Positions 132 through 39,531 of a stretch of DNA of 45,792 nt are shown here, in pieces. Source of the DNA: Candidatus Uhrbacteria bacterium (GTDB lineage: Bacteria; Patescibacteriota; Patescibacteriia; UBA9934; GWF2-40-263); contig JAZDEQ010000067.1 of NCBI GenBank assembly GCA_043808565.1, positions 1-45,792 on the forward strand, read 5' to 3'. Position 1 is the stretch's first letter. Every line of letters begins with the position of its first letter. Under the pieces are notes generated by a model, which worked only from the letters and a program-made list of their open reading frames with translations, did no database searches and was not told the origin of the DNA. The translations under genes were made by a program, and so were the position numbers.

Positions 132-692
132 TTAGCCCTGTCTAACGCCCCCCCCCCAAGGCGTTTCAGCTTGAAAACTTCCAATTATCTCGGACAAAAG
201 GCCGACGGTTTTTTGATCGGCTATTTTTCGTTTTAAAACCGCCAACAAAATCTCGTGATCCACCGAATCAAAAAACTTTTTGATATCGAATTTAAGAGCA
301 AAGCATGGCGAAGAATAATTTTTACTAACCCGACAAACAAAATCTTGAAGCCGCCGCACGGCGGCATGTGTACCTTTGCCGACTCGACAAGAATAACTGT
401 CAAAAATAAAACCCTTTTCAAAAATCGGCAAAAGAACTCGATAGACGGCGTGATGAACCAACCGATCTCGAACCATGGCTTTGTGAATAACTCGGTGTTT
501 AGGATCAAAAAGATGGAAACAATGATATTTGCCGTGGTAATAATTTCCATTTTTTAAATCTTCATGAAGAATAAAAATATTATCTTCAAGATTACGTTCG
601 AATTTCTGAACATCTGGTCTATTCTGTTTACCACACCTAAACTCGTGCCAGGCCGAAAATAAATTCTCTAAAGAAATAATTTTTTCAAACAT
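132..692 (-). pseudogene. DGR-type reverse transcriptase, 3'-truncated (N-terminal half only, no YxDD region)
   Basis: The 186-aa ORF is collinear from residue 1 with the full-length RT at 26851..27933 (MFEKIISLENLFSAW vs LFEQIVTTNNLFLAW; shared FDSYSCRVGKGTHAAV and DIKKFF). It ends right after a G10 run (C10 on the + strand, 158..167), where the paralog continues with IPLGNLTSQ and YCDD. All three frames hit stops within about 20 codons downstream. Confidence 0.75.
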
Positions 693-694
693 AT

Positions 695-1039
695 ATGCAA
701 GAAATATCCGAAACTCCGGTTTTTACTTTATCTTTTAACTTATTGAAGGACATTTATTTGCTACGCAAAAAATTTCCCAAGACTGAAAAATACACACTGG
801 GCGGACAAATGGAACAAACAGCTTTGGAAATAATGTTAAGTATTATTCAAGCCGGCCGGGCTAAAAAACAAGAAAAAATAATACCACTTGAATTAGCCAT
901 TAAGAAAAACGACACAACCAAAATTTTGTTTCGTTTGGCTAAGGAAATAAAACTTATCAGCGACCAACAATATTTAGAGTATCAAGAAAAACTGCAAAAA
1001 ATCGGACAAATGTTGGGCGGCTGGTATCGATCGATATGA
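695..1039 (+). CDS. avd: Avd-like accessory variability determinant (four-helix-bundle / 23S rRNA IVS protein family)
   Basis: 114 aa with FPKTEKYTLGGQ near the N-terminus and KIGQMLGGW at the C-terminus, typical of this family. The paralog at locus 2 has FPKSQRYTLGE and TGKMLGGW. It sits between the RT and TR of a DGR. Its start codon is 2 nt from the divergent RT start, inside the palindrome CATATATG (690..697). Confidence 0.8.
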   Translation: MQEISETPVFTLSFNLLKDIYLLRKKFPKTEKYTLGGQMEQTALEIMLSIIQAGRAKKQEKIIPLELAIKKNDTTKILFRLAKEIKLISDQQYLEYQEKLQKIGQMLGGWYRSI

Positions 1040-1072
1040 ATACTCCGCCTTTTTACAAAAGGCGGAGTATTC
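1038..1072. terminator. Perfect 12-bp hairpin between the avd stop and TR1
   Basis: GAATACTCCGCC (1038..1049) and GGCGGAGTATTC (1061..1072) are exact reverse complements. The loop TTTTTACAAAA can extend the stem. The hairpin lies 3' of avd on the + strand and immediately 3' of TR1 on the - strand. Confidence 0.5.
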
Positions 1073-1081
1073 GCGAAGCAG

Positions 1082-1211
1082 TCCCGGCGGAAGACGAGCG
1101 ACCCATAGTTCGGGTTGGCGATCTTGGCATTCCTGTTCAGGTTGAGCTTGGGCTGGCCGTTCCACACCTTGAGGTACGCGCAGTTGCCACGAGCGTCGCG
1201 GTTCACGGAGC
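1082..1211 (-). repeat. DGR template repeat TR1 (130 bp)
   Basis: It aligns without gaps to 1535..1664. All 13 mismatches are T on the + strand (A in the sense, - strand) in this copy. Sense translation gives the Asn-rich ..VNRDARGNCAYLKVWNGQPKLNLNRNAKIANPNYGSLVFRRD. Confidence 0.92.
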
Positions 1212-1530
1212 TTCCAATTATTGTCACACCCCATCTTTGTCACCAGGTTTTCCGCCAAAGCGGTTAACCTTGAATTTCATTTGGGATTTTTTCCACCAGA
1301 GCATGACAAGGAGTGCCTCGTTAGAATCACGCCCTTTTGTATTCATTTATTCGAACACAAAATTCCGGTGATAACTCTTTCGAGAATTTCGGGGACCCCG
1401 CTGCTCGCAAGCGGCGGGGCACAATACCCTACTTTCAAAAATTATTATAACGAAAATGCGCCAGAATCTCCAGATCTGACGCAAAAAAGAGGAGGAAAAA
1501 AGTGAAAAGACCAGAGGGACGAAGCGACAG

Positions 1531-2418
1531 TCACTCCCGGCGGAAGACGAGCGACCCATAGTGCGGGTAGGCGATCTCGGCATCCCTGTCCAGGAAGAGC
1601 TTGGGCTGGCCGCGCCACACCCCGAGGTACGCGCAGTCGCCACGAGCGTCGCGGTCCACGGAGCCGGGAAGGTCGATGATGTGCTCACCTTCCTTCACAA
1701 TGTCAACCTTGTGTGCATACGCCGTGACACCAACCATGGCCGTGCCGGCCAGAAGGTTGCCGGTGCACTCGATTCGGCAGTCGGTCGGCTTCCGATTCCG
1801 ATTCGACCGGCCGTCATTGCAGCGGAACCAGAACGGTTCCGTCGGATCGCTGTGCCGTTTGTCGCACGGCTCGGCACTTTCGTCGCCGTAGCCAAACTCG
1901 GCATACTTGATGCCGATGAGTTGGCACGCCTTGACGAGCCCCGGCCGAGGATCGGCCAGGAAAAGCAGAGGTAGTTTGGAATCGTTGGCGACCAGAAACG
2001 CAGGAATCTCTGGAATTCCCTCGAGATACGTCTCGAATATCACTCCTTCGCCCCCGAAACCGAGTTCGAACAATCGCCTGGCTTGCGCCAAACGAATTTC
2101 GGCCGGCGCCGACGGAGTGATGGGCGCCGGCATGGCGGCAGACGCTGCCGGCGGAACCGCGGCCGCTTCTCGCAGGACGAGGCGACCAGCGATGAGGTCT
2201 AAGACCTGTTGCGGAGTGATTTCCTTGTAGTAGAGCGCTCGACCCAGCGGATCTGTAGCGGTGTGGTTGACCATCAAGCCGTGGAAACCAGTGGTGGTGA
2301 ATCTCTTGGCCAGTTCAATGATCTGGCTCAGCCACCCAGGGACATCAAGGAGGGTTTCTCTTCTTTCTTCCATCTTTGGCTCCTTACCCCAAAATCCGAA
2401 AAATACAATCTCTTTCAC
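1531..2418 (-). CDS. DGR target (variable) protein 1, with a C-terminal VR-encoded domain ending ..YGSLVFRRE
   Basis: The 295-aa ORF is in a GC-rich block, and its last ~43 codons are VR1. Ten residues differ from the TR1-encoded sequence (N->D, D, R, F, D, D, Y, H; K->G, E). I see no N-terminal signal peptide or TM segment. Confidence 0.85.
   Translation of the reverse strand: MKEIVFFGFWGKEPKMEERRETLLDVPGWLSQIIELAKRFTTTGFHGLMVNHTATDPLGRALYYKEITPQQVLDLIAGRLVLREAAAVPPAASAAMPAPITPSAPAEIRLAQARRLFELGFGGEGVIFETYLEGIPEIPAFLVANDSKLPLLFLADPRPGLVKACQLIGIKYAEFGYGDESAEPCDKRHSDPTEPFWFRCNDGRSNRNRKPTDCRIECTGNLLAGTAMVGVTAYAHKVDIVKEGEHIIDLPGSVDRDARGDCAYLGVWRGQPKLFLDRDAEIAYPHYGSLVFRRE
1535..1664 (-). repeat. 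DGR variable repeat VR1 (130 bp)
   Basis: This is the 3' end of the 1531..2418 ORF. It is identical to TR1 except at 13 positions, all TR adenines in the sense strand (8 A->G, 3 A->T, 2 A->C). The first ~28 nt at the 3' (sense) end are invariant and GC-rich, as expected for an IMH. Confidence 0.92.
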
Positions 2419-2559: not shown

Positions 2560-3402
2560 CTAAATCTTGTTTTTGGATTCTTTCTTCAAAAAATCCATTA
2601 CTTCAACCAAAGTAACTTTTGGTTTTCCTGGCTCGTTTTTATAGCCCCAATTGCCTTTTTCACCAAAAGTAAAACCGCCAAATTTTTTAAAAAGCTTTTC
2701 GGCACCCGAAAAATCCTGAACCAAAATAACACCTCGACCACGCTCGTCAAAGATAATCGGAACTGGATGGTCAAATTTTCGCGCGACCAACAAAGAAACA
2801 TATCGCCGTAAACCTTCTTTTGTATAAGTGGTGATAATAAAAAAATCTTGCCACTTAATGCGTTTTTGCCAGGCTAGTTTGGCCGCCTGCTCATATCTCC
2901 TTTCAATCACTGGATCTGTAAACGGTCGCATTAACTTTTTTTGCCAAGCCAAAACTTTTTTTATTTCATTTTCGCTGTAACCCTCATTTTGCAAAGACCA
3001 AATAAATCCCCGATCAAAAATCGCTACTCCGTGAACTAAACGTGGATCAAAACCCAGAGCTAATAATTTTTTATCGTTCAAGTGAAAAACTGTCAAAAAC
3101 TGTTCCAGCGAAGACTTAATTTTTTTCCGATTTAAATTTTGATAACGATGATGATCAATTATTTTCACCTCCAGACCTTTTTTCAATAATTGTTTTTCGG
3201 TTTTAACCCCAGGCATTTCTACTATCACCGCTTTATTGGCCCCGCTTTCAATAATTTTATTAACAATGTCTGGTTCTTTATCCAAAGACGCCCCATGCGG
3301 TTGGCTGGAAATAATGACCGGCAAATCAATAGCCTTGGCCAAACGTAAAATCATGATAGCTTCGAAGTCGTTGGGGGGAATAATAAGGATGTTTTTTTTC
3401 AT
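2560..3402 (-). CDS. Hypothetical protein (possible divergent DHH-type phosphoesterase)
   Basis: Clean 280-aa ORF with host-like AT-rich composition. The only motif I recognise is ..KIIDHHRY.., so the family call is weak. Confidence 0.55.
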   Translation of the reverse strand: MKKNILIIPPNDFEAIMILRLAKAIDLPVIISSQPHGASLDKEPDIVNKIIESGANKAVIVEMPGVKTEKQLLKKGLEVKIIDHHRYQNLNRKKIKSSLEQFLTVFHLNDKKLLALGFDPRLVHGVAIFDRGFIWSLQNEGYSENEIKKVLAWQKKLMRPFTDPVIERRYEQAAKLAWQKRIKWQDFFIITTYTKEGLRRYVSLLVARKFDHPVPIIFDERGRGVILVQDFSGAEKLFKKFGGFTFGEKGNWGYKNEPGKPKVTLVEVMDFLKKESKNKI

Positions 3403-3484: not shown

Positions 3485-6427
3485 TTATTCCACGACAAAC
3501 CCCACCGTTACATCGCACTCGTTCATTCTAAAAGATTCACAAATCTCTGGTCGCTCGCCGGTTGTTCGTAACGAGTTGGCTAACGTACCGTTTTTAATGG
3601 TTTCTTCGAATTCATTAATCATAGTTTGGGCTTCCGTGTCGGCGCTCTCAAAATATAATTCAATACGATTCTCAATGGTCAATTTATTGTTCTTGCGCAT
3701 TTCATTAACTCGACGAACCAAGTCGCGAGCCATGCCCTCGCGCAAAAGCTCGGGCGTTAAATTTACATCGAGCTCGACATTATATTCACCTTTTTCAATA
3801 ATAACGTTTTTAACGTTCACTTCGTCTTTAATAATGTTTACCAATTCCTCGTCCAGTTCGCCTTCTGGTAACCAAACGGTGGCTGAAGCTAAAGGCTGAC
3901 GAACCGCCCGACCGGTCTCGGAACGCTTTTCCAAAATTTTAGAAACCACTGAGCGCGAGCGAGCCATACGATCCAAAAGTTTTTCGTCAAGCAAGGTTTG
4001 GTCAACAGTTGGCCAAAGGTCGAGGTGAACAGATGACAAACCGCCGCCCAAACGCAAATAAATCGCTTCTGATAAAAATGGAGCAAATGGCGCCATTAAT
4101 TTAGAAACTGTTATCAAACCCTCACGAAGTGTGGCCAAAGCTGCGGCCTTATCGGCCTCGTCTTTGCCTTTAAATCGATCCCGACTGCGACGAACAAACC
4201 AAGTTGAAAGATCATTGATAAAATCTCCGATCGCTCGAACCGGCTCAGTCACTTTGAAACCATCAAGCTGTTCGGTCGATTCTTTGATCAATTGATTCAA
4301 ACGAGCAAGAACCCAACGATCTAAAACGTTCCCTGAAACCCCTTCAACCCCTTTCGCCCCTTCAACCCCTATATACAGTTCATAAAAAGTCATCACATTC
4401 CAAAGAATCATAAAAACTTTTTTGACCATTTCGTCTAGAGCTTTCAAATCAAAACGTTTGGAATCACCGGGTTGATTAATGGAATACATGTACCAACGAA
4501 CAGCGTCGGCACCGTATTGATTGATAGTAGAAATCGGATCAACGATATTACCAACAGACTTGGACATTTTTTTACCTTTGGCATCCAAAACATGACCGTA
4601 ACAAATAACATTTTTAAACGGCCGCTCTTTACCAAGCAAAGTCGCAACAGCCAACAAGGTATAAAACCAACCGCGAGTCTGGTCGATAGCTTCGGAAATA
4701 TAATCAGCTGGATAAGCTTCATTGGAATCAATTTTTTCTTTATTTTCAAAGGGATAATGCCATTGAGCAAACGGCATACAACCGGAATCAAACCAAACAT
4801 CGCAAACTTCAGTTACGCGTTTCATTTGGCTGCCACACTTTTCACATTTTATGAGAACACCATCGACGAACGGACGGTGCGGGTCAAACACCCCTCCCCC
4901 GTCCCCCGTCATCAACCCCTCACCCCCAGCCCCTTCTCCCCCGGGGAGAGGGGAGATTGAGCGAGCGTGGAGTTCGTCGAAACTTCCAATGCAAGATTTT
5001 TCTCCGCACTCACAAACCCAAACTGGTAATGGTGTGCCCCAATAACGTTCCCGTGAAAAGGACCAGTCTTTTACCTCACGCAACCACTCGCCGAAACGAC
5101 CGTCTTTAATGTAGTCCGGTTCCCAATGAATTTTGCTATTTTCTTCAATCAACTTGTCACGCAGACTGCTCATGCGGATATACCAAGAGTCTTTGGCATA
5201 ATAAACTAACGGCGATTTGCAGCGCCAACAAAAAGGATAAGTATGTTTAATTCTTTCTTGAGCTAAAAGCAAACCGCGAGCGGTTAAATCTTCTATAACT
5301 TTTGGATCAGCATCTTTAACAAACAAACCAGCAAACGATCCACAATCATCAGTCATCTTCCCATCCAAACCAACAAGATGAATTTTTGGCAAACCAATTT
5401 TTTGACCCAATTCAAAATCCTCAACGCCGTACATTACGGCTGTGTGGACAATACCCGAACCATCATCAAGAGAAACAAAGTCAGCTGGCACTACATACCA
5501 AGCTCGCTTCTTTCCTTCTTCGGTTCCAGCCATTTTCTTTTTGGTAAAATCATAAAGCGGTTCGTACTCCATACCAACCAAATCACTACCGGATTTTTCT
5601 TCAATAATTTCAAACTCACCTTTGGTAGCAACCTCAACTCGACTCTTCGCTAACCAAAGATTTTCATCTTGATGTTTTACTTTTACATAAGCCATGTTAG
5701 TACCAACAGCTAACGCCACATTGGCTGGCAAGGTCCACGGTGTGGTTGTCCAGGCCACTAAATACTCCGACTCTTTTGGTTCGGAACCATCGGCTAATTT
5801 TGTCACTTTAAATTTAATATAAACCGCTGGATCTTCAACTTCTTTATATCCTTGAGCTAACTCATGAGAAGACAACGAGGTTCCACAACGCGGACAATGT
5901 GGGACAACTTTGTAATCCTGATATAAAAATCCCTTATCCCAAATCTGTTTAATAACCCACCACAGTGACTCAATATATTCTGAATGATATGTGATGTAGG
6001 GATGATCAAGATCCAACCAAAAACCAATGCGTTTAGTAATTGACTGCCACTCTTCAAGATATTTCCAAACACTTTCACGACATTTTTCATTAAAAGGTTC
6101 AATGCCAAAATTTTCAATATCTTTTTTACCAGAAAAACCCAGCTGTTTTTCCACCTCAATTTCTACTGGCAAACCTTGGGTATCCCAGCCGGCTTTACGC
6201 TCAACCAAAAATCCCTGCATGGTGCGATAGCGCAAAATACAATCCTTAAAAGCTCGTCCTTCGATGTGGTGAATGCCGGGTTTGCCATTAGCTGTTGGCG
6301 GGCCTTCAAAAAAAACAAAGCGACCCTTAGGCGAAGCCTTGGCTAAAGTTTTTTCAAAAATCTTTTCAGCTTCCCAGTTTTTAAGAAGCTCTTCCTCGAT
6401 TTGAGGAAAGTTGGGGCGGTCGGACAT
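3485..6427 (-). CDS. ileS: Isoleucine--tRNA ligase
   Basis: 980 aa with the HIGH-type motif PPTANGKPGIHH, the KMSKS motif (GKKMSKSVGN), Cys clusters (HCPRCGT, CWRCKS, CECGEK, CEKCGS) and WFDSG. It contains two unusual Gly-rich inserts (see findings). Confidence 0.93.
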   Translation of the reverse strand: MSDRPNFPQIEEELLKNWEAEKIFEKTLAKASPKGRFVFFEGPPTANGKPGIHHIEGRAFKDCILRYRTMQGFLVERKAGWDTQGLPVEIEVEKQLGFSGKKDIENFGIEPFNEKCRESVWKYLEEWQSITKRIGFWLDLDHPYITYHSEYIESLWWVIKQIWDKGFLYQDYKVVPHCPRCGTSLSSHELAQGYKEVEDPAVYIKFKVTKLADGSEPKESEYLVAWTTTPWTLPANVALAVGTNMAYVKVKHQDENLWLAKSRVEVATKGEFEIIEEKSGSDLVGMEYEPLYDFTKKKMAGTEEGKKRAWYVVPADFVSLDDGSGIVHTAVMYGVEDFELGQKIGLPKIHLVGLDGKMTDDCGSFAGLFVKDADPKVIEDLTARGLLLAQERIKHTYPFCWRCKSPLVYYAKDSWYIRMSSLRDKLIEENSKIHWEPDYIKDGRFGEWLREVKDWSFSRERYWGTPLPVWVCECGEKSCIGSFDELHARSISPLPGGEGAGGEGLMTGDGGGVFDPHRPFVDGVLIKCEKCGSQMKRVTEVCDVWFDSGCMPFAQWHYPFENKEKIDSNEAYPADYISEAIDQTRGWFYTLLAVATLLGKERPFKNVICYGHVLDAKGKKMSKSVGNIVDPISTINQYGADAVRWYMYSINQPGDSKRFDLKALDEMVKKVFMILWNVMTFYELYIGVEGAKGVEGVSGNVLDRWVLARLNQLIKESTEQLDGFKVTEPVRAIGDFINDLSTWFVRRSRDRFKGKDEADKAAALATLREGLITVSKLMAPFAPFLSEAIYLRLGGGLSSVHLDLWPTVDQTLLDEKLLDRMARSRSVVSKILEKRSETGRAVRQPLASATVWLPEGELDEELVNIIKDEVNVKNVIIEKGEYNVELDVNLTPELLREGMARDLVRRVNEMRKNNKLTIENRIELYFESADTEAQTMINEFEETIKNGTLANSLRTTGERPEICESFRMNECDVTVGFVVE
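4909..4953. repeat. Copy of the DUF559-associated repeat (TCATYAACCCCTCAC..TCTCCCCCGGGGAGAGGGG), in-frame inside ileS
   Basis: TCATCAACCCCTCACCCCCAGCCCCTTCTCCCCCGGGGAGAGGGG closely matches 33589..33628 and 34052..34087. It includes the palindrome TCTCCCC-C-GGGGAGA (4935..4949). Confidence 0.7.
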
Positions 6428-6729: not shown

Positions 6730-7785
6730 ATGCTTAAATTGGCTGACAAACAACAACAAATAATCGCTATTTTATTAAAAAATAGTCCATTTTCCTCCTC
6801 ACAAATTCATTTGGAATTAGAAAAGTTTGGAGAAAAAACTTCCTTAATTACAACAAAAAGAGCTGTCTCGAAATTAGTCGAGCAAAAAATTTTACAAACT
6901 TCCGGAGCCGGAAGATCGGTTGTTTATACGTTAAACATACTTGGGCGAACACTGGCCGATGTGGACGCCAAAGAATACTGCTCGATTGAGCCGGATAAAC
7001 GCTATGGATTAAAACAATATAATTTTAATTTGTTTTCCGGTTTTCCAAAAGAAATTTTCTCTAAAGAAGAATTGGTGACTATGAAAGCCGCCACTCTTCA
7101 ATACAAACAAAGAACCAAAAATTTATCAGCAACGATTCAAAAAAAAGAATTAGAAAGATTGGTTATTGAACTCTCTTGGAAATCCTCGAAAATCGAAGGC
7201 AACACCTACACTCTTCTTGACACAGAAAAACTTTTATTGGAAAACAAAGTGGCGCCAAACAAAACCAAAGAAGAAACCCAGATGATTTTAAACCACAAGG
7301 AAGCTTTCAATTTTATTCATAAAAATTCCGAGCTGTTTAAAAATATCGGCAAAAAAAATCTTGAAGAATTACACAAAATTTTAGTCAAAAATTTAAACAT
7401 TGATATCAGTTTCCGTAAAAAACCCGTCGGTATAACCGGTTCGGCCTATCGTCCGCTTGATAATTTTTATCAAATCGGGGAAGCTGTGGAGGAATTAGAC
7501 GAAAAAATTTCACGAGCCAAAACACCTTACGACAAATCTTTTTTAGCTTTAATTGGCTTGTCTTACATTCAGCCTTTTGAAGATGGAAACAAAAGAACCA
7601 GCCGATTAATGGCCAACGCATTATTGTTAGCTCACGGTTTGGCTCCTTTATCTTATCGCAGCATTGACGAAGAAGAATATCGGGAAGCCTTACTGGTGTT
7701 TTACGAACTCAACGCTGTTAAACCGTTCAAAAAAATATTCATTGAACAATACATTTTCGCGGCAAATAATTATTTGGTTAAATAA
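6730..7785 (+). CDS. Fic/Doc-family protein with an N-terminal winged-helix domain and a non-canonical active-site motif
   Basis: 351 aa. The motif IQPFEDGNKRTSR occupies the position of the Fic consensus HxFx(D/E)GNGRxxR, with Gln in place of the catalytic His and NKR as in Doc. The N-terminal ~70 aa look like a wHTH. Confidence 0.7.
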   Translation: MLKLADKQQQIIAILLKNSPFSSSQIHLELEKFGEKTSLITTKRAVSKLVEQKILQTSGAGRSVVYTLNILGRTLADVDAKEYCSIEPDKRYGLKQYNFNLFSGFPKEIFSKEELVTMKAATLQYKQRTKNLSATIQKKELERLVIELSWKSSKIEGNTYTLLDTEKLLLENKVAPNKTKEETQMILNHKEAFNFIHKNSELFKNIGKKNLEELHKILVKNLNIDISFRKKPVGITGSAYRPLDNFYQIGEAVEELDEKISRAKTPYDKSFLALIGLSYIQPFEDGNKRTSRLMANALLLAHGLAPLSYRSIDEEEYREALLVFYELNAVKPFKKIFIEQYIFAANNYLVK

Positions 7786-16540: not shown

Positions 16541-17458
16541 ATGTTAACTTCGTTATCTAATCTTTTGAATCGCGCCCAACATAAACACTACGCTGTCGGG
16601 GCTTTTAATGTTTATAACTTGGAAACCATTCAAGCTGTCATTGCGGCGGCCGAAGCCGAACGTTCACCGGTCATTATTCAAACTTCAGAAGCGGCCATCA
16701 AATATGCTGGCTTGGAAATTCTTGGAGCGATGGTTCATCAGCTGGCTAAAAAAACCAAAGCGCCAATAATTTTTCACCTAGATCATGGAAAAAACGAAAA
16801 ACTGGTTGCTGAAGCTATTAAAAGTGGTTGGTATGGCAGTGTAATGTTTGATGGTTCGGCTTTGCCTTACAAAAAAAATCTCCAAATTACTAAAAAACTC
16901 GTCAAATTAGCTCATACCAAAGGCGTGGCTGTCGAGGCTGAGCTAGGAGCTATTGCTGGTATTGAAGATTTGGTTTCGGTCAAAGATCGTGACGCCCAAC
17001 TAACCAATCCTAAACAGGCGGCCGAATTTGTTCGCGAAACTGGTTGCGATGCCCTAGCCATAGCCATTGGCACTAAACACGGCGCCTACAAATTTCACGG
17101 CGATTGCCAATTGGATTTTGAACGTTTAAAAGAAATCCGGGCGGCGGTTTCTGTTCCGCTGGTTCTTCATGGTGCTTCTGGGGTTCCGGCAGCTATTAAA
17201 AATTTGGCCATAAAATTTGGTGCGGAAATTGGCGAAGCCAAGGGTATTTCTGACTCAGCTATTAAAAAAGCTGTGACTTTAGGTATTTGTAAAATTAATA
17301 TTGATACTGATTTGCGGATTGCTTTTATTGCCGGATTACATCAATTCATAGAAAACAACCCAAAAGATATTGACCCTCGAGCTTTTTTATCAGCTGGCAA
17401 AGAAAAAATAACTGAAGTGGTTCGACAAAAAATTCGGTTGTTTGGGTCAGGTGTCTAA
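16541..17458 (+). CDS. fba: Class II fructose-bisphosphate aldolase
   Basis: 305 aa with YAVGAFNVYNLE, PVIIQTSE, HLDHG, MFDGS and LVLHGASG. Confidence 0.88.
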   Translation: MLTSLSNLLNRAQHKHYAVGAFNVYNLETIQAVIAAAEAERSPVIIQTSEAAIKYAGLEILGAMVHQLAKKTKAPIIFHLDHGKNEKLVAEAIKSGWYGSVMFDGSALPYKKNLQITKKLVKLAHTKGVAVEAELGAIAGIEDLVSVKDRDAQLTNPKQAAEFVRETGCDALAIAIGTKHGAYKFHGDCQLDFERLKEIRAAVSVPLVLHGASGVPAAIKNLAIKFGAEIGEAKGISDSAIKKAVTLGICKINIDTDLRIAFIAGLHQFIENNPKDIDPRAFLSAGKEKITEVVRQKIRLFGSGV

Positions 17459-17467
17459 ACCTTGCCA

Positions 17468-17495
17468 TGCCCGCCATAGCCCAGCGACGGCGGGA
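17468..17495. repeat. Conserved hairpin repeat, copy A (TGCCCGCCATAGCCCAGCGACGGCGGGA)
   Basis: One of four copies of TGCCCG(Y)CC..AGCCC.AGCG..GGCGGG(T). The stem is CCCGCC/GGCGGG. Confidence 0.7.
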
Positions 17496-21384: not shown

Positions 21385-21906
21385 ATGAGACGTTTTATCC
21401 AATCTGCCACTGCCGTATCGGCCGCTTCTTTTGCTGGTGAGTTTTTTATCATTGGTAAGGCCGAGGCTTTTTGTCCGGTTTGTACGGTGGCCGCGGCTGG
21501 TGGTGTTGGTTTAGCTCGCTGGCTAGGCATTGACGACACGATTACTGGTCTTTGGATCGGCGCCTTGCTTGTCTCAATTACTTTTTGGACAGCCAATTGG
21601 TTGAAAAAGAAAAATCTTAAATTTCCGGGTCTGGTCTTGTGCTCTGGCCTTTTTTATATTCTGATTACAGTTGTCCCGCTTTATTTCACCGGCGTCATGG
21701 GTCATCCTTGGAATCAAATTTGGGGCATCGATAAACTGGCCGCCGGCATGATCGTTGGCGCCGTCTTTTTCTATGCCGCCGAAAAACTTTATCTATTTCT
21801 AAAAAAGAAAAATAATAATCACGCTCACTTCCCTTTTGAAAAAGTTGTCTTACCTGTAATAACTTTGATTATTTTAAGTGGGGTCTTTTATTTTTTAATT
21901 AAATAA
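21385..21906 (+). CDS. Integral membrane protein with a CPVC motif
   Basis: 173 aa with four or more hydrophobic segments and CPVCTVAAAGG near the N-terminus. It starts immediately after the thioredoxin-like gene, suggesting a possible redox pair. Confidence 0.5.
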   Translation: MRRFIQSATAVSAASFAGEFFIIGKAEAFCPVCTVAAAGGVGLARWLGIDDTITGLWIGALLVSITFWTANWLKKKNLKFPGLVLCSGLFYILITVVPLYFTGVMGHPWNQIWGIDKLAAGMIVGAVFFYAAEKLYLFLKKKNNNHAHFPFEKVVLPVITLIILSGVFYFLIK

Positions 21907-21914
21907 AATTCGCG

Positions 21915-21943
21915 TGCCCACCAAAGCCCGAGCGGCGGCGGGT
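21915..21943. repeat. Conserved hairpin repeat, copy B (degenerate: TGCCCACCAAAGCCCGAGCGGCGGCGGGT)
   Basis: Matches the TGCCC..AGCCC.AGCG..GGCGGGT family. It is intergenic and flanked by ATTCG/AATTCGTAAC words. Confidence 0.55.
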
Positions 21944-23487: not shown

Positions 23488-23671
23488 CGTTTTTTTTTGG
23501 AAATTCGAAATTCGAAAATTAGTTTTGACTAATTTTTTAAAATCGAATTCACTCAAAAAGTATAGGGAAAAAAAATGATTTAGTCAAAAAAAACGAAAAG
23601 CGCGCTTAGGAAATTGTACCCCAAACGCGCCGATGATGATCCCGGCTTGGCCCCCCCTTTTTTTCTCTGCT

Positions 23672-24946
23672 TCATACTGCAGACCAGGCTGGGATGTAGC
23701 TCCAACGCACCGTCGTTGGACCCCTACTTACCTCTTCGAGGTTCTCGGTGATCCAGATAAACTTCCGGATCAAACCGATGGTCTCGGCCGACAGGGGGTC
23801 GGCTTCACGCCACCGACTGTCGGCGTGGGCTTCAAGAGCCCGCGACACCGTGTCAACGTTGGTGTTATGAGTAGCCACCAACACTTTCTGCCGCCAAGCT
23901 TCGTTCTTGATTCTTGAACGAGCTTTAGACGACAGTCTTGACTCGTTGTAATCTAAGTTGAGCAAGATCAATTTGAACGCCGAGACAAGTTCGGCACGTC
24001 CGTGGTTGGCATTATCCGACAAGCTGGCTGTCGGATATTCAACCCGCAGACCCTGATAGGTCTTTGGCATAACCTGACCGGCGCCGTAAGCGCCGCCCGG
24101 ACTTCCGGTTACGAGAACCGCTGGATTGGCGGCGATCTTCTCAAGCAAACCCGTCATGCAACCACGTTGTTCGACCACTGTCTTCCGACTGTCGAACGGA
24201 CTGCAGGTGAATGGCTGCTCGGCCAAGACGATCAGAACCGAAAGCTCGATATTCTCCTCACTGACCACCAGCTCGCCCGGGCGAGCCTTCGACGGAACGC
24301 CACGCTGGCGTAGATCGTCAGCAGCACCAACCGCGGCCCCCCGGAGAATTTCGAGTCCGGCTTGGGCTCTGGTGGTTTGGGCGGTGGAGATGACGGTAGC
24401 GGCCGTGGCCTCCTTCATTGGTGGAACGGGAACGGCAACTTTCGCCGCGCTCGTCCTATTCGGTTTCGATGATTCTTCGTCGAACACCTTTTCAATGTCA
24501 GTGCGCCCAAGGAGAAAAATCAGCGCCTCCCGAGCGCAGACTGAAAAAAAGAGGTTGGCGATCATGACGGCAACCACGCCGGTTCGAAGAACGCTCTGTC
24601 CTGGCGTCGCTGGCTTTTCTTCTTCGGAGACGTGTGTCTTGCGATTGGTCCACATAGCACCCCAAAGGAAAATTTGCCGACCAAGCGCCAAGACAGCTCC
24701 GAAACCACCAACATAAATAAGTGCTTCGATGGCGAATAGCATCGCCGCGACTACAGACTTTTCCCAACCGACCAGCCCAAAGAAGACACCGCTTCTCCAA
24801 ACAAAATCGGCCGAAAAGTAACCGCAGATCGCGGCCGCCGTCACGGTCATGACCACAACGGCCCATTTTCCCTTCAGTACTCTTTCCACATTCACCTCCA
24901 ACATCAGCTGTGAAGGGTTGGTTTTACTGCGACCGAGGTTGGCCAA
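23672..24946 (-). CDS. GC-rich membrane protein with a possible lytic-transglycosylase-like segment
   Basis: 424-aa ORF with a TTG start (internal ATGs are possible). It has three or more N-terminal hydrophobic segments. The C-terminal half contains GSPGGAYGAGQVMPKTYQ, reminiscent of the SLT GLMQ(I/V)MPxT motif. Its composition is far more GC-rich than its neighbours. Confidence 0.55.
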   Translation of the reverse strand: MANLGRSKTNPSQLMLEVNVERVLKGKWAVVVMTVTAAAICGYFSADFVWRSGVFFGLVGWEKSVVAAMLFAIEALIYVGGFGAVLALGRQIFLWGAMWTNRKTHVSEEEKPATPGQSVLRTGVVAVMIANLFFSVCAREALIFLLGRTDIEKVFDEESSKPNRTSAAKVAVPVPPMKEATAATVISTAQTTRAQAGLEILRGAAVGAADDLRQRGVPSKARPGELVVSEENIELSVLIVLAEQPFTCSPFDSRKTVVEQRGCMTGLLEKIAANPAVLVTGSPGGAYGAGQVMPKTYQGLRVEYPTASLSDNANHGRAELVSAFKLILLNLDYNESRLSSKARSRIKNEAWRQKVLVATHNTNVDTVSRALEAHADSRWREADPLSAETIGLIRKFIWITENLEEVSRGPTTVRWSYIPAWSAV

Positions 24947-26850: not shown

Positions 26851-27933
26851 TTAAAATATTGATTCATCCGAACCAACCTTATTACGAATAATACATTCAA
26901 TTTCATAAGCATCTGCGTGCGAGCAAAAACCTAAATACGACTGAAAATTATTTCTGTCAGAACGATAAATAGCTCGTTTGGCTGTGGTTGGTCGAACCAA
27001 AATTACTTCCGGCAAGATAACGTATCCGAGAAAATCAACACCCTGCGTCCAAGTTGTTATAAAAACCTTATCAGGATGTAGGCGAACCTTAAGCCGACTT
27101 TGAAGAAATGTGTCAATCTTTTTTGCCAATTCCATTCCTTCGGATATTGATTGGGCTAAGATAACAAAATCATCACAGTAACGAACATAATGTTTTAGAC
27201 CTAATTTCTGTTTTACAAACCAATCCAATTCGTGAAGATAAATATTGGCAAAAAGCTGGCTAGTTAAGTTACCAAGCGGAATGCCCGTTTCGGGTGTGGT
27301 AGAAAAACTTCTTACAATATTACGAATAACAGCCATTGTTTTTTGATCGTGTATTCGTTTAGTGAGTAGCTCTAACAAAACAGCGTGGTTAACTGAAGCA
27401 AAAAACTTTTTAATATCGCATTTCACGGCATAGACAGTTTTGGTGTTATTTTCTGAAGCTTGTCGAAGAAAAAATCGAAGTCGTTTAACTGCGGCATGAG
27501 TACCCTTACCAACACGACAAGAATAGCTGTCAAAAATAAACCGTTTTTCAAATAGCAGTTCAATAACATTTACAATCGCTTGATGAACAACTCTATCCCG
27601 AACCAATGCTTTATGAATTGTTCTTTGTTTTGGATCATGAATAGTGAACGGGGTGTATTGGCTGTGATAATAATAACCGTCGGTTAATTCGTTTTGAAGC
27701 TGAAAAATATTGTCCTCAAGATTTTTTTCAAACAACATCACATCTTCTCGTCTGCGTTTGCCGTTTCGGAATAATTCCCAAGCCAAAAATAAATTATTGG
27801 TAGTCACTATTTGTTCGAACAAATTATTTTCTTTTTGATTATGGATAAGGTTAACACTCTCCCTTTCTCCAAAAAATTTGAGGCCGAGCGCAAGTTGTTC
27901 AACGGCGGGCCCGGCGATATCCCGATTGTTCAT
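26851..27933 (-). CDS. DGR reverse transcriptase (full length)
   Basis: 360-aa ORF with IPLGNLTSQLFANIYL (the DGR-typical xGNLTSQ motif) and YVRYCDDFVI (YxDD). By alignment with the locus-1 RT, the true start is probably the TTG at 27822 (MFEQIVTTNNLF), inside the perfect palindrome TTGTTCGAACAA (27811..27822). Confidence 0.9.
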   Translation of the reverse strand: MNNRDIAGPAVEQLALGLKFFGERESVNLIHNQKENNLFEQIVTTNNLFLAWELFRNGKRRREDVMLFEKNLEDNIFQLQNELTDGYYYHSQYTPFTIHDPKQRTIHKALVRDRVVHQAIVNVIELLFEKRFIFDSYSCRVGKGTHAAVKRLRFFLRQASENNTKTVYAVKCDIKKFFASVNHAVLLELLTKRIHDQKTMAVIRNIVRSFSTTPETGIPLGNLTSQLFANIYLHELDWFVKQKLGLKHYVRYCDDFVILAQSISEGMELAKKIDTFLQSRLKVRLHPDKVFITTWTQGVDFLGYVILPEVILVRPTTAKRAIYRSDRNNFQSYLGFCSHADAYEIECIIRNKVGSDESIF

Positions 27934-28287
27934 ACTGTTTACGACATTTATGTTTCTTGGAATGAAATCATTTTAAAGTTTCCGAAATCGCAACGCTATA
28001 CACTTGGTGAAACTTGTTCCAAATATATTTTAACAATTCTTGAAAACTTACTCTTCGCCGCTTCGGCCGGTGAAATATCTGAAAAACTTCCAAAACTGAA
28101 AACCGTTAGCGCAGAAATCGACACCTTAAAACTTCTCGTTCGACTGGCAAAGGACTGCAAATGTATTGCCAATAATCAATATCAAAAAATTGAATCACTA
28201 CTAAACGAAACCGGAAAAATGTTGGGTGGCTGGATAAAATCATTTGGTAAAGGAAATGAAAATGAAGACGAAAAGGAGCACCTGTAG
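27841..28287 (+). CDS. avd: Avd-like accessory variability determinant (four-helix-bundle protein)
   Basis: FPKSQRYTLGE.., ..LVRLAKDCKCIANNQYQKIESLLNETGKMLGGW, collinear with the locus-1 Avd. The start is uncertain: ATG 27841, TTG 27895, or the track's TTG 27811. It is divergent from and abuts the RT. Confidence 0.8.
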   Translation: MDKVNTLPFSKKFEAERKLFNGGPGDIPIVHTVYDIYVSWNEIILKFPKSQRYTLGETCSKYILTILENLLFAASAGEISEKLPKLKTVSAEIDTLKLLVRLAKDCKCIANNQYQKIESLLNETGKMLGGWIKSFGKGNENEDEKEHL

Positions 28288-28300
28288 GTACTCCTTTTTT
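28271..28300. terminator. Hairpin between the avd stop and TR2
   Basis: AAAAGGAGCACC-TGTA-GGTACTCCTTTT with one internal mismatch and T-runs on both strands. It occupies the same position as the hairpin at 1038..1072 in locus 1. Confidence 0.45.
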
Positions 28301-28308
28301 AATGAGAA

Positions 28309-28433
28309 CTCCCTGCGGACGGGCATGGCGTTCTTGTAGAATCGGTTGTCGACATAGTTGCCGTTCAGCTTCGCCCTGTCGTCGTTCCGCCAGACATTCG
28401 GCGAGTTAGACCACTCGTCGTAGTCGGGAACGC
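28309..28433 (-). repeat. DGR template repeat TR2 (125 bp)
   Basis: It aligns without gaps to 28853..28977. All 16 mismatches are T on the + strand (A in the sense strand) in this copy. The sense translation is Asn-rich: VPDYDEWSNSPNVWRNDDRAKLNGNYVDNRFYKNAMPVRRE. Confidence 0.92.
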
Positions 28434-28837
28434 GTCCAGTTACATTTCATTCTTCCAAGACACCGGGCACAGACGCATCCATACCCTGAATTTTATGTGA
28501 AACCCTCTGACCAAGAATCAACAAACACTTTTTTATTGGTTTGGTTTCAAAATGAAATGCGGAGTGCTCATTAATCCGTTCCGTACACTTCTGTCTTCAA
28601 GAGAAAGCAGAACCCTGACGGCGTTTAGGATTACGAGAGATTTCGGCGGCCAGTATCCGTGAACACTGGTACATTAGCCTACTTTCCAATCATTAGTTTA
28701 TCAAAATTTTCTCAAAAAGAAGAGCCGCATTCGAAGATGCGACTCTGGGGTCGAAAATTCGGATGCGGCGAGGTGCTTCGCACCGGAAAGCCAAGTGGCA
28801 AATTGCCAAGGCTTCCAAGTGCAAAGCATTCAAGTGT

Positions 28838-29665
28838 CTAGAGCTTGTTGGGCTCCCTGCGGACGGGCATGGCGCGCTCGTAGAATCGGCAGTCGACATA
28901 GTCGCCGCTCAGCTCCGCCCTGCCGCCGCCCCGCCAGACACCCGGCGAGAGAGACCACTCGTCGTAGTCGGGAACGCTGAGAAGGAGTGCGGCCATGATG
29001 GCATAAGGAATCTTTTCTCCATCCATTTGGCGTACCCACTCCGGATGCTGGCTGGCGGCAAAGAGGGGCTCAAAATCGGCAAGGTGTCCAATTTGCTTCT
29101 GTTGAACCTCAGCGAGAACCGTACCATCGCGTCGGTTCCAGTTGGCGCCGAAGTCCACGATGTGCAGGGCGAGTTCGTTCGGAACGAACGTGCGGGCACC
29201 TTCTATAAGCTTGATTCGCTTGTCATCGACACCGTTCGCGTAGGCTGCGTCCCATTCCGAATACTTTTCACTGTGAGCCGTCCGCATCAACGCACGGCCA
29301 AAGAGGAGTGTTGCGGGCACGGATTCGCGGTTGGAGACGATGACCGGAGCGAGCAGGCGGGACTTCGGCAATTCGGCCTCGAAGAGTTCGAACAGCCCAC
29401 GATCACGAGCCTTCGCGAGCATGATGTCGATCATGTCACCAGTCACACCTTCGTACTCACGCGCCATCGCCACGACGTCGTCGAGGGGTGACCAGATGCC
29501 GTGGATGAGACGGAAAACGGGATCTAGCATGGCAGTATCGAACATTGCCTTCATGATGCCCGGATTCTGATTGATCTTCCGACCCTGTTCGGCAGTGAAG
29601 AACTCACCCATGATCCGCTTGAGCTCGGTGAGTTCGCCGTCACGCAGGTTCGAGAAATGAGACAT
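28838..29665 (-). CDS. DGR target (variable) protein 2
   Basis: 275-aa GC-rich ORF whose last ~45 codons are VR2 (..VPDYDEWSLSPGVWRGGGRAELSGDYVDCRFYERAMPVRREPNKL). Eleven residues differ from the TR2-encoded sequence. No signal peptide or TM segment is evident. Confidence 0.85.
   Translation of the reverse strand: MSHFSNLRDGELTELKRIMGEFFTAEQGRKINQNPGIMKAMFDTAMLDPVFRLIHGIWSPLDDVVAMAREYEGVTGDMIDIMLAKARDRGLFELFEAELPKSRLLAPVIVSNRESVPATLLFGRALMRTAHSEKYSEWDAAYANGVDDKRIKLIEGARTFVPNELALHIVDFGANWNRRDGTVLAEVQQKQIGHLADFEPLFAASQHPEWVRQMDGEKIPYAIMAALLLSVPDYDEWSLSPGVWRGGGRAELSGDYVDCRFYERAMPVRREPNKL
28853..28977 (-). repeat. DGR variable repeat VR2 (125 bp)
   Basis: Identical to TR2 except at 16 positions, all TR adenines in the sense strand (12 A->G, 2 A->C, 2 A->T). 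Both ends are invariant. Confidence 0.92.
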
Positions 29666-30019
29666 GATTAACTCCCTGATTGCCGCTTGGCTGACCGTTC
29701 CGGGTACTTCCCGTTGGGCTGACCTTTTTGTTGAAAGCGGCCTTTTGCTTCAAAAATTTTGGAGCAAAAAGCCGCCTTTAACACAGAACTTGTTTAAATG
29801 AACAGGGATGAATTATAGCAGAAAATAGCCAAAAAGTCAATGTTTTGACCCAGGTTTGGCGGTTTTTGCTAGGAATTTGGTTGTTTTCTTCGAACAGAAA
29901 ACAGTTTAGGCGAAAAAATTTAATCCTTGTTAACTTTGGTTTGTTAATATCAAACCGGTCAATCAGTATTAAAAAACAAATCAGTTTTCACTGAAAAATA
30001 AAATTTTATGTCAGATATA

Positions 30020-33588: not shown

Positions 33589-33628
33589 TCATTAACCCCT
33601 CACTCAACCTCTCCCCCGGGGAGAGGGG
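33589..33628. repeat. DUF559-flanking repeat, left copy (TCATTAACCCCTCACTCAACCTCTCCCCCGGGGAGAGGGG)
   Basis: Shares the AACCCCTCAC..TCTCCCCCGGGGAGAGG core with 4909..4953 and 34052..34087, and with an inverted copy at 34101..34162. Confidence 0.7.
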
Positions 33629-33651
33629 CTAAACAAGGCGGAAGGATACAA

Positions 33652-34051: not shown

Positions 34052-34162
34052 CCAACCCCTCACCCAACCTCTCCATCAGGGAGAGGAGTTAAAATGATCT
34101 TCTCTCCCCGGGGGAGAGATAAGAGAGAGGGGTTGAGAGAGACCAAAGAAAGGGGTGAGGTG
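34052..34162. repeat. DUF559-flanking repeats, right side (one direct copy plus one inverted copy)
   Basis: The direct copy is CCAACCCCTCACCCAACCTCTCCATCAGGGAGAGG (34052..34087). The inverted copy is the palindrome TCTCTCCCCGGGGGAGAGA (34101..34119) followed by GAGAGGGGTTGAGAGAG..AGGGGTGAGGTG. Confidence 0.65.
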
Positions 34163-39498: not shown

Positions 39499-39531
39499 AA
39501 AAAAAATCCGCAATTAACTCGCGGATTTTTT
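39499..39531. terminator. Bidirectional terminator hairpin, copy 1 of an identical pair
   Basis: AAAAAAAATCCGCAATTAACTCGCGGATTTTTT lies between convergent genes. The same ~31-nt sequence recurs at 40494..40525. Confidence 0.7.

Follow-up and report, generated by a model that had tools for sequence, protein, structure and literature searches.

The two DGR cassettes found in the 45,792-nt stretch of DNA analysed here (the window) are probably typical Patescibacteria elements of the B3 architecture, with the template repeat (TR) carried by a self-contained non-coding RNA gene. In both cassettes, target/VR, TR and RT are on the minus strand, and avd is on the plus strand (Table 1). In DGRs, the VR belongs to the C-terminus of a target protein with a C-type lectin-like fold; in the window, VR1 and VR2 are each located at the extreme C-terminus of an ORF without a Pfam match, and the core TR-to-VR changes are confined to TR adenines (minus strand) in loci 1 and 2. 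Both minus-strand RT ORFs match Pfam RVT_1; RT2 holds both the DGR motif GIPLGNLTSQ, of the [I/L]GxxxSQ type that replaces QG in DGR enzymes, and the catalytic YCDD (YxDD), and RT1 holds neither.

Table 1. Features of the two DGR cassettes, in window coordinates.
Feature	Position	Strand	Description
RT1 remnant	132..692	-	186 aa, N-terminal half; Pfam RVT_1 positions 8-106 of 205
avd1	695..1039	+	114 aa; head-to-head with RT1; Pfam bAvd 3e-15
TR1 hairpin	1038..1072 (1038-1053/1057-1072)	-	perfect 16-bp stem, 3-nt loop
TR1 3' end + linker GGACUGCUUCG	1074..1084	-	pairs with leader 1310-1321
TR1	1079-1211	-	89% identity with VR1; core changes at TR adenines
TR1 RNA leader	1212..1437	-	begins GAAAGUAGG; structured
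Locus-1 leader strand ACGAGGCACUCC	1310..1321	-	pairs with TR1 3' end + linker
TR1 RNA promoter-like site	1444..1472	-	TGGAGA-17-TATAAT, 10/12
Target gene 1	1531..2418	-	295 aa, ~60% GC, no Pfam match
VR1	1532-1664	-	C-terminus of target gene 1
RT2	26851..27822	-	full length, 323 aa from TTG 27822; alternative ATG 27933
Palindrome TTGTTCGAACAA	27811..27822		L-F-E-Q codons, conserved RT2 N-terminus
avd2	27895..28287	+	130 aa from TTG 27895, alternative ATG 27841; Pfam bAvd 2e-17
TR2 hairpin	28271..28298	-	12 bp, 4-nt loop, then CGUCUUCAUU; terminator-like on - strand
TR2 3' end + linker GGAGUUCUCAUUAA	28299..28312	-	pairs with leader 28561-28575; abuts hairpin
TR2	28309-28433	-	template repeat; core changes vs VR2 at TR adenines
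TR2 RNA leader	28434..28687	-	5' end GGAAAGUAGG at 28687
Locus-2 leader strand AUUAAUGAGCACUCC	28561..28575	-	pairs with TR2 3' end + linker
TR2 RNA extended -10 TGATAAACT	28695..28703	-	7 nt upstream of 5' end
Target gene 2 terminator-like hairpin	28721..28746	-	upstream of TR2 RNA promoter
Target gene 2	28838..29665	-	275 aa, ~58% GC, no Pfam match
VR2	28853-28977	-	C-terminus of target gene 2
Target gene 2 promoter-like site	29840-29812	-	TTGACT-17-TATAAT

Cassette architecture

In the survey of Wu et al. 2018 (PMC5758913), the order TR-(avd)-RT is listed as the major architecture B3, covering "90% of the CPR set". Both loci exhibit the features of this class (TR-(avd)-RT order, a reverse-strand avd and no other accessory gene), and their layout is identical to the one described there, with the target upstream and avd inverted between TR and RT. 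Related loci are organised in the same way: avd is found upstream of RT on the opposite strand, head-to-head, in 147 of the 150 that have upstream room, and TR lies on the RT strand, upstream of avd, in 115. The RT homologues of the window DGRs (at least 7,991 at E < 1e-20) belong overwhelmingly to Patescibacteria. An earlier note on this DNA had presented the layout as novel, a claim that by its own account would fall if large DGR surveys already listed it; since B3 is catalogued in such a survey, and the related loci are alike, the novelty is lost. As far as it was covered here, the same paper lacks the word 'hairpin' and any account of a promoter for TR, of a leader RNA or of its duplex with TR. 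The inverted-avd layout is standard CPR architecture, and the RNA organisation behind it may matter more.

The cassettes, the Avd ORFs, the start codons at 690-697 and both hairpins were correctly identified in that note, but the intact layout that it had attributed to both loci does not hold, because RT1 lacks its catalytic half. CAT-AT-ATG is indeed present at 690-697 in locus 1, where 2 nt separate the RT1 ATG (690-692, minus strand) from the avd1 ATG (695-697, plus strand). Close spacing of the two starts turns out to be a general feature, homologous start positions lying a median of 28 nt apart (5-95%: 8-72 nt). RT and avd would diverge from a very short shared region, and their promoters can reasonably be expected to overlap the neighbouring coding sequence.

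At locus 2, the TTG at 27822 is a plausible start for RT2, since the database copy of the protein has 323 residues and the homologues are concordant. The start of avd2 is probably located outside the palindrome found at the same place, because, in the ORF that opens at 27811, the bAvd domain is only reached at around residue 46-52, and the homologue alignments begin at ~27895. The palindrome itself, which arises because the L-F-E-Q codons are self-complementary, is best read as a chance codon feature. The motif is encoded non-palindromically in relatives, and the window contains 25 perfect 12-nt palindromes, compared to 13.5 ± 3.4 in shuffles. Consequently, the palindrome described in the earlier note does exist, but it has no special status and probably does not embed the avd start. 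A role as a regulatory or operator site was considered and rejected on the same grounds (not conserved, explained by the codons and one of many in the window).

Status of locus 1

As assembled, RT1 can be aligned to its family until just before GxPLGNLTSQ, and the YCDD catalytic half is absent. The truncation lies ~130 nt from the contig end, and no contig from the DNA runs bridges this point in the configuration of the window. There is about an even chance that locus 1 is a decaying, non-functional cassette or, alternatively, that the truncation of RT1 is an assembly artefact of the contig end. Together with the missing catalytic half, this explanation would account for the contig of a related strain, which matches positions 1-141 and diverges at position 141, for the run of 10 C at the junction and for the lack of locus-1 RNA among the metatranscriptome matches. 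However, avd1, the leader, TR1, the duplex and the hairpin of locus 1 are all intact, and the changes between VR1 and TR1 occur at adenines only, indicating that the cassette was active at some time. RT2, encoded in the same genome, could also serve locus 1 in trans, but identity between avd1 and avd2 reaches only 38%. With only an RT fragment in the assembly, locus 1 may be decaying, served in trans by RT2, or mis-assembled at the contig end.

The probable TR RNA gene

In this clade, TR is expected to lie outside any avd-TR-RT transcript, in a non-coding RNA gene of its own. This gene would open with an extended -10 promoter placed shortly after the target gene, followed by the 5' end GGAAAGUAGG, a structured leader of ~225-250 nt, TR, a linker of 8-12 nt, and a terminal hairpin. 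In most close relatives, the conserved 5' end precedes TR by 214-259 nt. A -10 box ending 5-9 nt upstream of it is present in 20 of 21 loci, compared to 12.5% at random positions, and is TGn-extended in 16 of them. At locus 1, the conserved 5' motif GAAAGUAGG begins at 1436, 7 nt past the -10 hexamer.

The RNA evidence consists of assembled contigs from one groundwater metatranscriptome, which carry no strand information and stop short of the hairpin. One of these contigs, 100% identical to the window, spans 28349-28687 and has an adapter exactly at 28687, coinciding with GGAAAGUAGG. The adapter may, however, mark the end of a fragment and not the true 5' end; in the contig of target gene 2, the adapter end is at 29741, ~60 nt inside the promoter-predicted start. 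In the 40 kb examined, real matches (>100 nt) were restricted to the target-gene/VR region, the leader and part of TR, and the depth over RT2 and avd2 was 0. The fact that only the target mRNA and the TR RNA were matched hints that the system is actively used. The RNA contigs also break within VR2 (28903/28916), which, in assembled contigs, is no more than suggestive of ongoing adenine mutagenesis and VR heterogeneity. The proposal of the earlier note that the TR RNA is a separate short transcript is supported by the conserved extended -10 and 5' end, the adapter-ended contig and the terminator-like hairpin on the TR sense.

The leader and its duplex with the TR 3' end

The leader was recovered by iterated nhmmer in 91 of 162 loci, ending in each of them ~10 nt before TR; with a sequence-only profile, 38 of the 115 TR-bearing loci gave no leader match. 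Compensatory changes are observed in 27 of the 40 leader pairs predicted by RNAalifold. The possibility that the leader is a coding sequence was discarded, as a conserved ORF is absent and the base-pair covariation is clear.

The last ~5 nt of TR and the linker pair with a leader segment located ~110-130 nt upstream of TR. When cognate and non-cognate leader:TR-3'-end pairings were compared, a single leader segment stood out (z -1.43, p 3e-10). In this duplex, 85% of the cells are paired, compared to 62% in shuffles (0 of 500 reach the observed value) and 40-49% when the strands are slid, although the register of the 3' strand is the best ungapped match, which inflates the percentage paired, and the related loci are not independent samples. 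Compensatory changes affect 11 of the 13 pairs. Pairing of leader segments with the 3' 25 nt of TR alone, or with the TR 5' end, was non-significant (best p = 0.022, uncorrected). A further candidate, in which the leader's purine-rich end (GGAAGGAGAAAA) would bind the U-rich tail, was rejected as compositional. The leader:linker duplex would abut the hairpin. By analogy with the 3' spacer of BPP-1, the 5' leader may supply both RT/Avd docking and priming. No description of the leader or of the leader:TR duplex was found in the literature searched.

The hairpin 3' of TR

The TR1 hairpin (-26 kcal/mol, z -5.6) starts 7 nt after TR1 and overlaps the avd1 stop codon. It was not flagged as terminator-like and is followed by the tail AUAUCGAU, which is not a U-tract. 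The TR2 hairpin starts 11 nt after TR2, holds the avd2 stop codon within its loop, and is perfect only on the minus strand, where one G-U pair corresponds to a C·A mismatch on the plus strand. Both hairpins had been pointed out in the earlier note, which is amended here regarding the stem of locus 1 (16 bp instead of 12 bp).

A hairpin of at least 7 bp (median 10 bp) is found in 83 of 115 loci, with a median start 11 nt after TR. The stems of the two window hairpins are perfect or near-perfect, without obvious bulges. Between loci, stem sequences are not conserved, although the structure is kept. Judging from its G·U pairs, the hairpin is selected on the TR-sense RNA, because 35 such pairs are found on this strand, versus 4 on the avd-sense strand (A·C on the TR sense). 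Similarly, a T-tract follows the hairpin on the TR sense in 49 of the 83 loci, versus 15 on the avd sense. A clear U-tract is absent in the other 34, locus 1 among them, so that termination, if a role of the hairpin, is not the sole one. Acting on the TR-sense RNA, the hairpin may mark the transcript end in most loci and/or represent the counterpart of an Avd-binding element.

In most loci, the hairpin falls within the avd ORF or borders on it. The avd stop codon is inside or before the hairpin in 54 of the 83 loci, and avd mostly lacks a terminator in its own sense. Thus, avd appears to be convergent with the TR RNA gene, its 3' end overlapping the hairpin. The earlier note had proposed that a read-through TR transcript would be antisense to avd; the overlap is confirmed, but its direction would mainly be the opposite one. 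If so, the avd mRNA would run antisense into the TR RNA and could regulate it.

It is unlikely that the hairpin is a mere terminator between the convergent TR RNA and avd, with no DGR-specific role. A role in termination alone would be consistent with the GC-rich stem, the TR-sense T-tracts, the flagging of the locus-2 hairpin as terminator-like and the conservation of structure but not of stem sequence, as is usual for terminators. However, in the loci without a clear U-tract the hairpin is still strong and its distance from TR is unchanged. The hairpin also directly adjoins the covarying leader:linker duplex. Moreover, an essential Avd-binding stem-loop occupies the equivalent position in BPP-1, and the strand bias of both the G·U pairs and the T-tracts indicates that the hairpin is not bidirectional.

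Less probable still is a canonical-like RNA, where TR would be read through past the hairpin into a BPP-1-like spacer antisense to the 3' part of avd. In its favour, terminators are rarely complete, the U-tract is missing at locus 1, and the antisense of the Avd C-terminal MLGGW is a conserved CCANCCNCC, located 20-40 nt past the hairpin. Nevertheless, the conservation of CCANCCNCC is explained by the protein, and the 40 nt past the hairpin exhibit no cognate-specific pairing to the TR 3' end or to the region from -40 to +10 of the TR start. The RNA contigs also stop short of avd, although this is weak evidence. Cognate pairing between the upstream region (-40 to +10) and the linker was not above that of non-cognate pairs or shuffles, and no counterpart was detected of the cPRT-stop duplex, in which a segment of the BPP-1 spacer is complementary to sequence just upstream of TR.

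The idea that the hairpin itself replaces the self-priming spacer, TR plus hairpin being the minimal DGR RNA, is highly improbable: it fits the lack of cognate-specific complementarity past the hairpin and the U-tracts, which suggest an RNA end there, but leaves unexplained a conserved, covarying leader of ~225 nt that is fused to TR and pairs with its 3' end. This replacement had been put forward in the earlier note. The hairpin matches the position of the BPP-1 Avd-binding stem-loop, and the TR 3' end finds its pairing partner in a large structured RNA on the 5' side of TR; the 5' leader would be a better candidate for the replacement of the spacer than the hairpin.

A possible permuted RNA

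[quoted passage not shown] The RNA of DGRs of the Patescibacterial B3 clade may be permuted compared to that of BPP-1, with RT-Avd docking and the strand holding the TR 3' end in the 5' leader, and with the linker and the terminating hairpin on the 3' side. This arrangement is proposed tentatively, with rather less than even confidence. Within a small RNA transcribed independently, the 5' leader of ~225 nt would hold the TR 3' end, and perhaps prime on it. If true, it would provide a retron-like topology and a minimal, transplantable RNA.

If the 5' leader does clamp the template 3' end, the RNA required for reconstitution would be defined (28687 to about 28262 at locus 2), and the priming geometry would be open to compensatory-mutation tests. 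Such a compact, self-terminated template RNA could also be used in DGR-based mutagenesis tools.

Comparison with known RNAs

In BPP-1, the Avd-bound stem-loop Sp3-33 (11 bp and a tetraloop) is located immediately 3' of TR, and an "Avd-binding stem-loop" has been predicted 3' of TR in 207 of 278 Avd-containing DGRs, including those of CPR (Handa et al., preprint 10.1101/2023.10.23.563531). Such elements have ~9-11 bp and often a tetraloop, with flipped-out bases that the Avd pentamer contacts and that cDNA synthesis needs. The window DGRs share with BPP-1 a stem-loop directly after TR on the TR-sense RNA. By position, and from both BPP-1 and the survey, it is inferred to be a putative Avd-binding stem-loop. 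A stem-loop distal to TR has already been described and is, hence, not new. The template:primer duplex of BPP-1 is formed by TR118-129 and Sp47-56 (10.1101/2023.10.23.563531), and in the window DGRs the TR 3' end is likewise held by a strand of non-template RNA that is oriented with its own 3' end towards TR. However, the accessory RNA of BPP-1 (~140 nt) lies entirely on the 3' side of TR and extends into the RT gene. Contrary to this arrangement, the window DGRs have both their large structured domain and the partner strand of the TR 3' end on the 5' side of TR, and their 3' side comprises a linker and one hairpin, often followed by a U-tract.

Motifs RT-1 to RT-19 are found near RT genes and have no known function, RT-10 corresponding to the BPP-1 spacer (Weinberg et al. 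2017, PMC5737381). Among them, the whole RT-16 model (Rfam RF03019) matches the 3' part of the locus-1 leader (1215-1362) with 28.3 bits, below its gathering score of 50. Like RT-16, this leader adjoins the RT gene and bears an AUAAAAU(a/u)CA-[stem]-GGUG(a) core, although RT-16 covers no more than the 3'-terminal ~150 nt of this RNA. RT-16 had no match at locus 2 (E up to 5), nor in relatives, either at the gathering score (0 of 18 loci) or at E up to 1 (0 of 11 further loci). At Rfam gathering thresholds, only rRNA, tRNA and one LOOT RNA were found in the window and the 18 loci.

In the msr-msd RNA of retrons, the template region is bound at its 3' end by a strand from the 5' side (a2/a1 repeats), and the priming strand is upstream of the template. 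The window DGRs resemble retrons in this topology, as the partner strand of the TR 3' end is located upstream of the template. However, they lack the invariant branching G of retrons, the base after the duplex being G or U, and their RT family, Avd dependence and A-mutagenic retrohoming are those of DGRs.

Two DGR cassettes of the B3 type

The window, a whole 45.8-kb contig of a groundwater organism of the Patescibacteria (CPR) with a GC content of ~38%, holds two DGR cassettes (see table), in which all the mismatches between template repeat (TR) and variable repeat (VR) in the repeat cores fall at TR adenines, on the - strand. The two Avd proteins are 38% identical and the RT N-termini ~55%, while the targets are unrelated; the cassettes are not recent duplications of one another. 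Both target ORFs and both TRs stand out as sharp compositional islands of ~58-62% GC against ~38% for the genome. A further GC-rich island at 23600-24800 bears an ORF (23672-24946, - strand, 424 aa) in which neither a Pfam match nor a TR-like repeat was found.

Components of the two DGR cassettes
Feature	Position	Strand	Remarks
RT1 fragment	132-692	-	Pfam RVT_1 match
avd1	695-1039	+	Pfam bAvd, 3e-15
Locus 1 hairpin	1038-1072		
TR1	1079-1211	-	
VR1	1532-1664		within target ORF 1531-2418 (-)
RT2	26851-27822/27933	-	Pfam RVT_1 match
avd2	~27895-28287	+	Pfam bAvd, 2e-17
Locus 2 hairpin	28271-28298		
TR2	28309-28433	-	
VR2	28853-28977		within target ORF 28838-29665 (-)

For comparison, 160 related loci (RT identity 42-69%) were taken in equal parts, 80 each, from GTDB species genomes and from metagenomes; with the two of the window this makes 162. 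RT homologues and related loci belong almost exclusively to MAGs of Patescibacteria (CPR), and the sequencing runs matching the window are groundwater metagenomes. Among the 150 loci with room upstream, RT is immediately preceded by avd on the other strand in 147 (one exception has avd downstream), and in 115 of these the TR is found on the RT strand just past avd, with A-specific differences to VR. In this survey, of the kind proposed in the earlier note, nearly all relatives share the head-to-head RT/avd arrangement; its suggested novelty is lost, since this is the standard layout of CPR, already known as the B3 architecture, TR-(avd)-RT, of Wu et al. 2018 (PMC5758913). Both cassettes belong to the known B3 DGRs of CPR. 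The same paper, which classifies DGR cassettes, points out that with components on different strands at least two transcription units are needed.

Several related loci (L009, at 2915-3031 and 1733-1849, L015, L018, L031, L040, and L061) hold one TR matching two VRs in two target genes, with a VR on the far side of RT in some of them, and in L028, L032, L029, and L048 TR and VR are on opposite strands. Locus L001, from a Parcubacteria MAG, carries a LOOT RNA (RF03000, 53.2 bits, above the gathering score) at 7025-7151, ~2 kb downstream of the DGR RT.

The strand arrangement described in the earlier note stands for both loci, but the family alignment reveals RT1 as only a 186-aa N-terminal remnant. 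It can be aligned to 36 homologues as far as "...SFQAETPWGGG" and stops exactly where the RT family has GIPLGNLTSQ, the entire YCDD half being absent; the 131 nt of contig beyond it are unrelated. A related-strain contig (sequencing run X15) agrees with the window over 1-141 and then diverges, resembling a rearrangement junction where RT1 breaks off; the truncation may be real, or due to a rearrangement hot spot or to a chimera at the contig end. Past 141, the X15 contig holds GC-rich VR/TR-like sequence (GCTGAACCCAGGGTCGAAGACGAGCC) in place of the RT1 remnant, and a run of 10 C is located at 148-157, near the truncated end. Locus 1 as assembled combines this truncated RT with an intact RNA gene and avd1, and with VR1/TR1 differences only at adenines.

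Other elements of the window

The 23S rRNA match (40831-44751) spans 3,921 nt against a model of 2,925 positions, and therefore contains an insertion of ~1 kb. In this insertion, the ORF 41836-42429 (197 aa) matches the LAGLIDADG homing-endonuclease domain with 1.4e-22, suggesting an rRNA intron or intervening sequence. A 5S rRNA is found at 40546-40654. A GC-rich palindromic element of ~40 nt (…CTCTCCCCCGGGGAGAGGGG…) is present in three copies, at 4919-4958, 33594-33633, and 34054-34093; one copy falls in the ORF for isoleucyl-tRNA synthetase (3485-6427) and encodes a Gly/Glu-rich insertion there (…SPLPGGEGAGGEG…). Another GC-rich repeat, of 38 nt (AAACCTTGCCATGCCCGCCATAGCCCAGCGACGGCGGG-like), is present at gene ends in three copies, 61-100% identical (17457-17494, 21905-21942, and 36410-36447), and could be a terminator or a REP-like element. 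The gene 39533-40441 has a palindromic terminator-like element (AAAAAATCCGCAATTAACTCGCGGATTTTTT) on either side, at 39500-39540 and 40493-40533, the two being nearly identical.

The RT-avd junction

The CAT-AT-ATG junction of locus 1 is present at 690-697 as reported, its start spacing of 2 nt being the extreme of the clade. Between start-homologous positions, the RT-avd distance in related loci has a median of 28 nt (5-95%, 8-72 nt), and this tight distribution makes nearly back-to-back starts a clade property. The palindrome of locus 2 (27811-27822) also exists; its occurrence is due to chance. It reads TTG-TTC-GAA-CAA, encoding Leu-Phe-Glu-Gln of the motif conserved at the N-terminus of these RTs (consensus LFxxIxSxENxFxAW), and is automatic because the four codons are pairwise reverse complements. 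Relatives write the same motif in other codons, without the palindrome, and the window contains 25 perfect 12-nt palindromes, compared to 13.5 +/- 3.4 in shuffles.

Neither is the TTG at 27811 probably the start of avd2, as formerly proposed: in the ORF opened there, the bAvd domain begins at residue ~46-52. Avd homologues can be aligned from ~27895 (TTG, with GAGG 11 nt upstream), with ATG 27841 as an alternative start. It is reasonable to infer that the divergent promoters of RT and avd have to reach into coding sequence; promoter scans of the junctions of both loci gave no convincing matches, and no RT or avd RNA was found in the metatranscriptome contigs.

A probable gene for the TR RNA

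A conserved promoter and 5' end are located upstream of TR. Both loci and most of the closer relatives share GGAAAGUAGG, 214-259 nt upstream of TR. In 20 of 21 loci this sequence is preceded by a -10 hexamer ending 5-9 nt before it, versus 12.5% at random positions. Sixteen of those 20 hexamers are TGn-extended, and upstream of these -10 elements there is commonly the target-gene terminator. A metatranscriptome contig from groundwater (run X1) is 100% identical to 28349-28687, with the sequencing adapter at 28687, which is the predicted start of the TR2 RNA, 7 nt past TGATAAACT. In the 40 kb examined, the only other X1 RNA matches above 100 nt were three pieces of the locus 2 target gene, and depth was 0 for RT2, avd2, locus 1, and housekeeping genes (e.g., ileS), in contigs that are strandless, of unreliable depth, and ending short of the hairpin. 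The TR RNA would be a discrete small RNA of ~400-430 nt, ending at the hairpin in most loci, and avd transcripts, mostly lacking an own-sense terminator, would run antisense into it.

In X1, the target 2 and TR RNAs (28349-29741) seem to be among the most abundant non-rRNA transcripts of the organism, and the contigs break within VR2 (28903/28916), in keeping with a heterogeneous VR.

The hairpin downstream of TR

Both hairpins 3' of TR were confirmed, and the stem of locus 1 is better than claimed, with 16 perfect pairs (-26 kcal/mol, z -5.6), whereas that of locus 2 is perfect on the - strand only, where one pair is G-U. Of the 115 TR-called loci, 83 have a hairpin with 7 or more Watson-Crick pairs (median 10), which starts at a median of 11 nt past the end of the TR/VR homology. 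When the best hairpin was taken from each of the first 67 loci, the median was 9 pairs, versus 5 for control windows within the coding sequence of RT. Since stem sequences vary freely between loci, it is the structure that is conserved. It is on the TR-sense RNA that the hairpin is under selection, with 35 G.U pairs in the stems on that strand versus 4 positions able to give G.U on the avd strand. A T-tract follows the stem in 49/83 loci on the TR sense versus 15/83 on the avd sense. The avd stop codon falls within or before it in 54/83 loci, so the hairpin is an RNA element encoded antisense in the end of avd.

A hairpin at this position, one of the two main features of the earlier note, was already known. 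In the RNP structure of the Bordetella phage BPP-1 DGR, Avd binds Sp3-33, a stem-loop of 11 bp plus tetraloop that follows TR directly. The same preprint (Handa, 10.1101/2023.10.23.563531) predicts stem-loops of this kind "just downstream of TR" for 207 out of 278 DGRs with Avd, CPR included. The hairpins described here may likewise double as an Avd grapple.

The leader and its duplex with the TR 3' end

The ~225-250 nt between the RNA 5' end and TR, or leader, are conserved and structured. A profile built from 16 sequences matched 49 loci at first and 91/162 after four nhmmer iterations, always beginning ~225 nt and ending ~10 nt before TR, and RNAalifold predicts 40 pairs, 27 of them with compensatory changes. 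The 3' part of the locus 1 leader matches Rfam RT-16 with 28.3 bits, below the gathering score of 50, through the common core AUAAAAUUCA-stem-GGUG; no match was obtained in locus 2 or 29 other loci. RT-16 is an RT-associated motif of unknown function, and RT-10 of the same series is the BPP-1 spacer (Weinberg et al., PMC5737381).

Leader segments were scanned against the TR flanks, comparing cognate with non-cognate partners, a test free of register-fitting bias. A single segment, at profile columns ~96-131, shows specific complementarity to the first 14 nt past TR (z -1.43, p 3e-10, 65 loci). The leader:TR-3' duplex is formed by AUUAAUGAGCACUCC (28561-28575) and GGAGUUCUCAUUAA (28299-28312) in locus 2, and by ACGAGGCACUCC (1310-1321) and GGACUGCUUCG (1074-1084) in locus 1. 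The TR-proximal helix covaries between subclades (ACUCC:GGAGU versus ACUUG:CAACU), and the linker helix, between TR and hairpin, is free to change (e.g., AAAUGAAGA:UCUUCAUUU, AAAUAAAGA:UCUUUAUUU, and AAAUGAAAA:UUUUCAUUU). In an alignment of 42 sequences, 85% of the cells are paired, an optimistic value because the register was fitted, compared to 62% in shuffles (0/500) and 40-49% with the partner slid; compensatory changes affect 11 of 13 pairs. Between the end of the duplex and the hairpin there is a gap of 0-1 nt, which accounts for the constant TR-hairpin spacing of ~11 nt.

Comparison with known DGRs

Of the earlier note, the observation is confirmed in part and the interpretation has partial support. 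As written, the earlier finding is ordinary, with both the inverted-avd layout and the TR-distal hairpin already in the literature; the interest comes from the RNA organisation around TR. No description of a TR RNA gene with a 5' leader clamping the TR 3' end was found in the searchable literature. The survey of the Handa preprint (10.1101/2023.10.23.563531) was restricted to 40 nt on the upstream side of TR and 100 nt on the downstream side. The novelty of such a self-contained gene is possible rather than established. In the 40 nt after the hairpin, no specific pairing was seen, either with the 3' end of TR or with the sequence immediately before TR. The leader strand of the duplex has its 3' end pointing into TR, and the geometry is the same as that of the BPP-1 template:primer duplex (TR118-129:Sp47-56). 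Unlike in BPP-1, however, the non-template strand comes from upstream of TR, and the docking and priming served by the spacer in BPP-1 would here fall to the leader.
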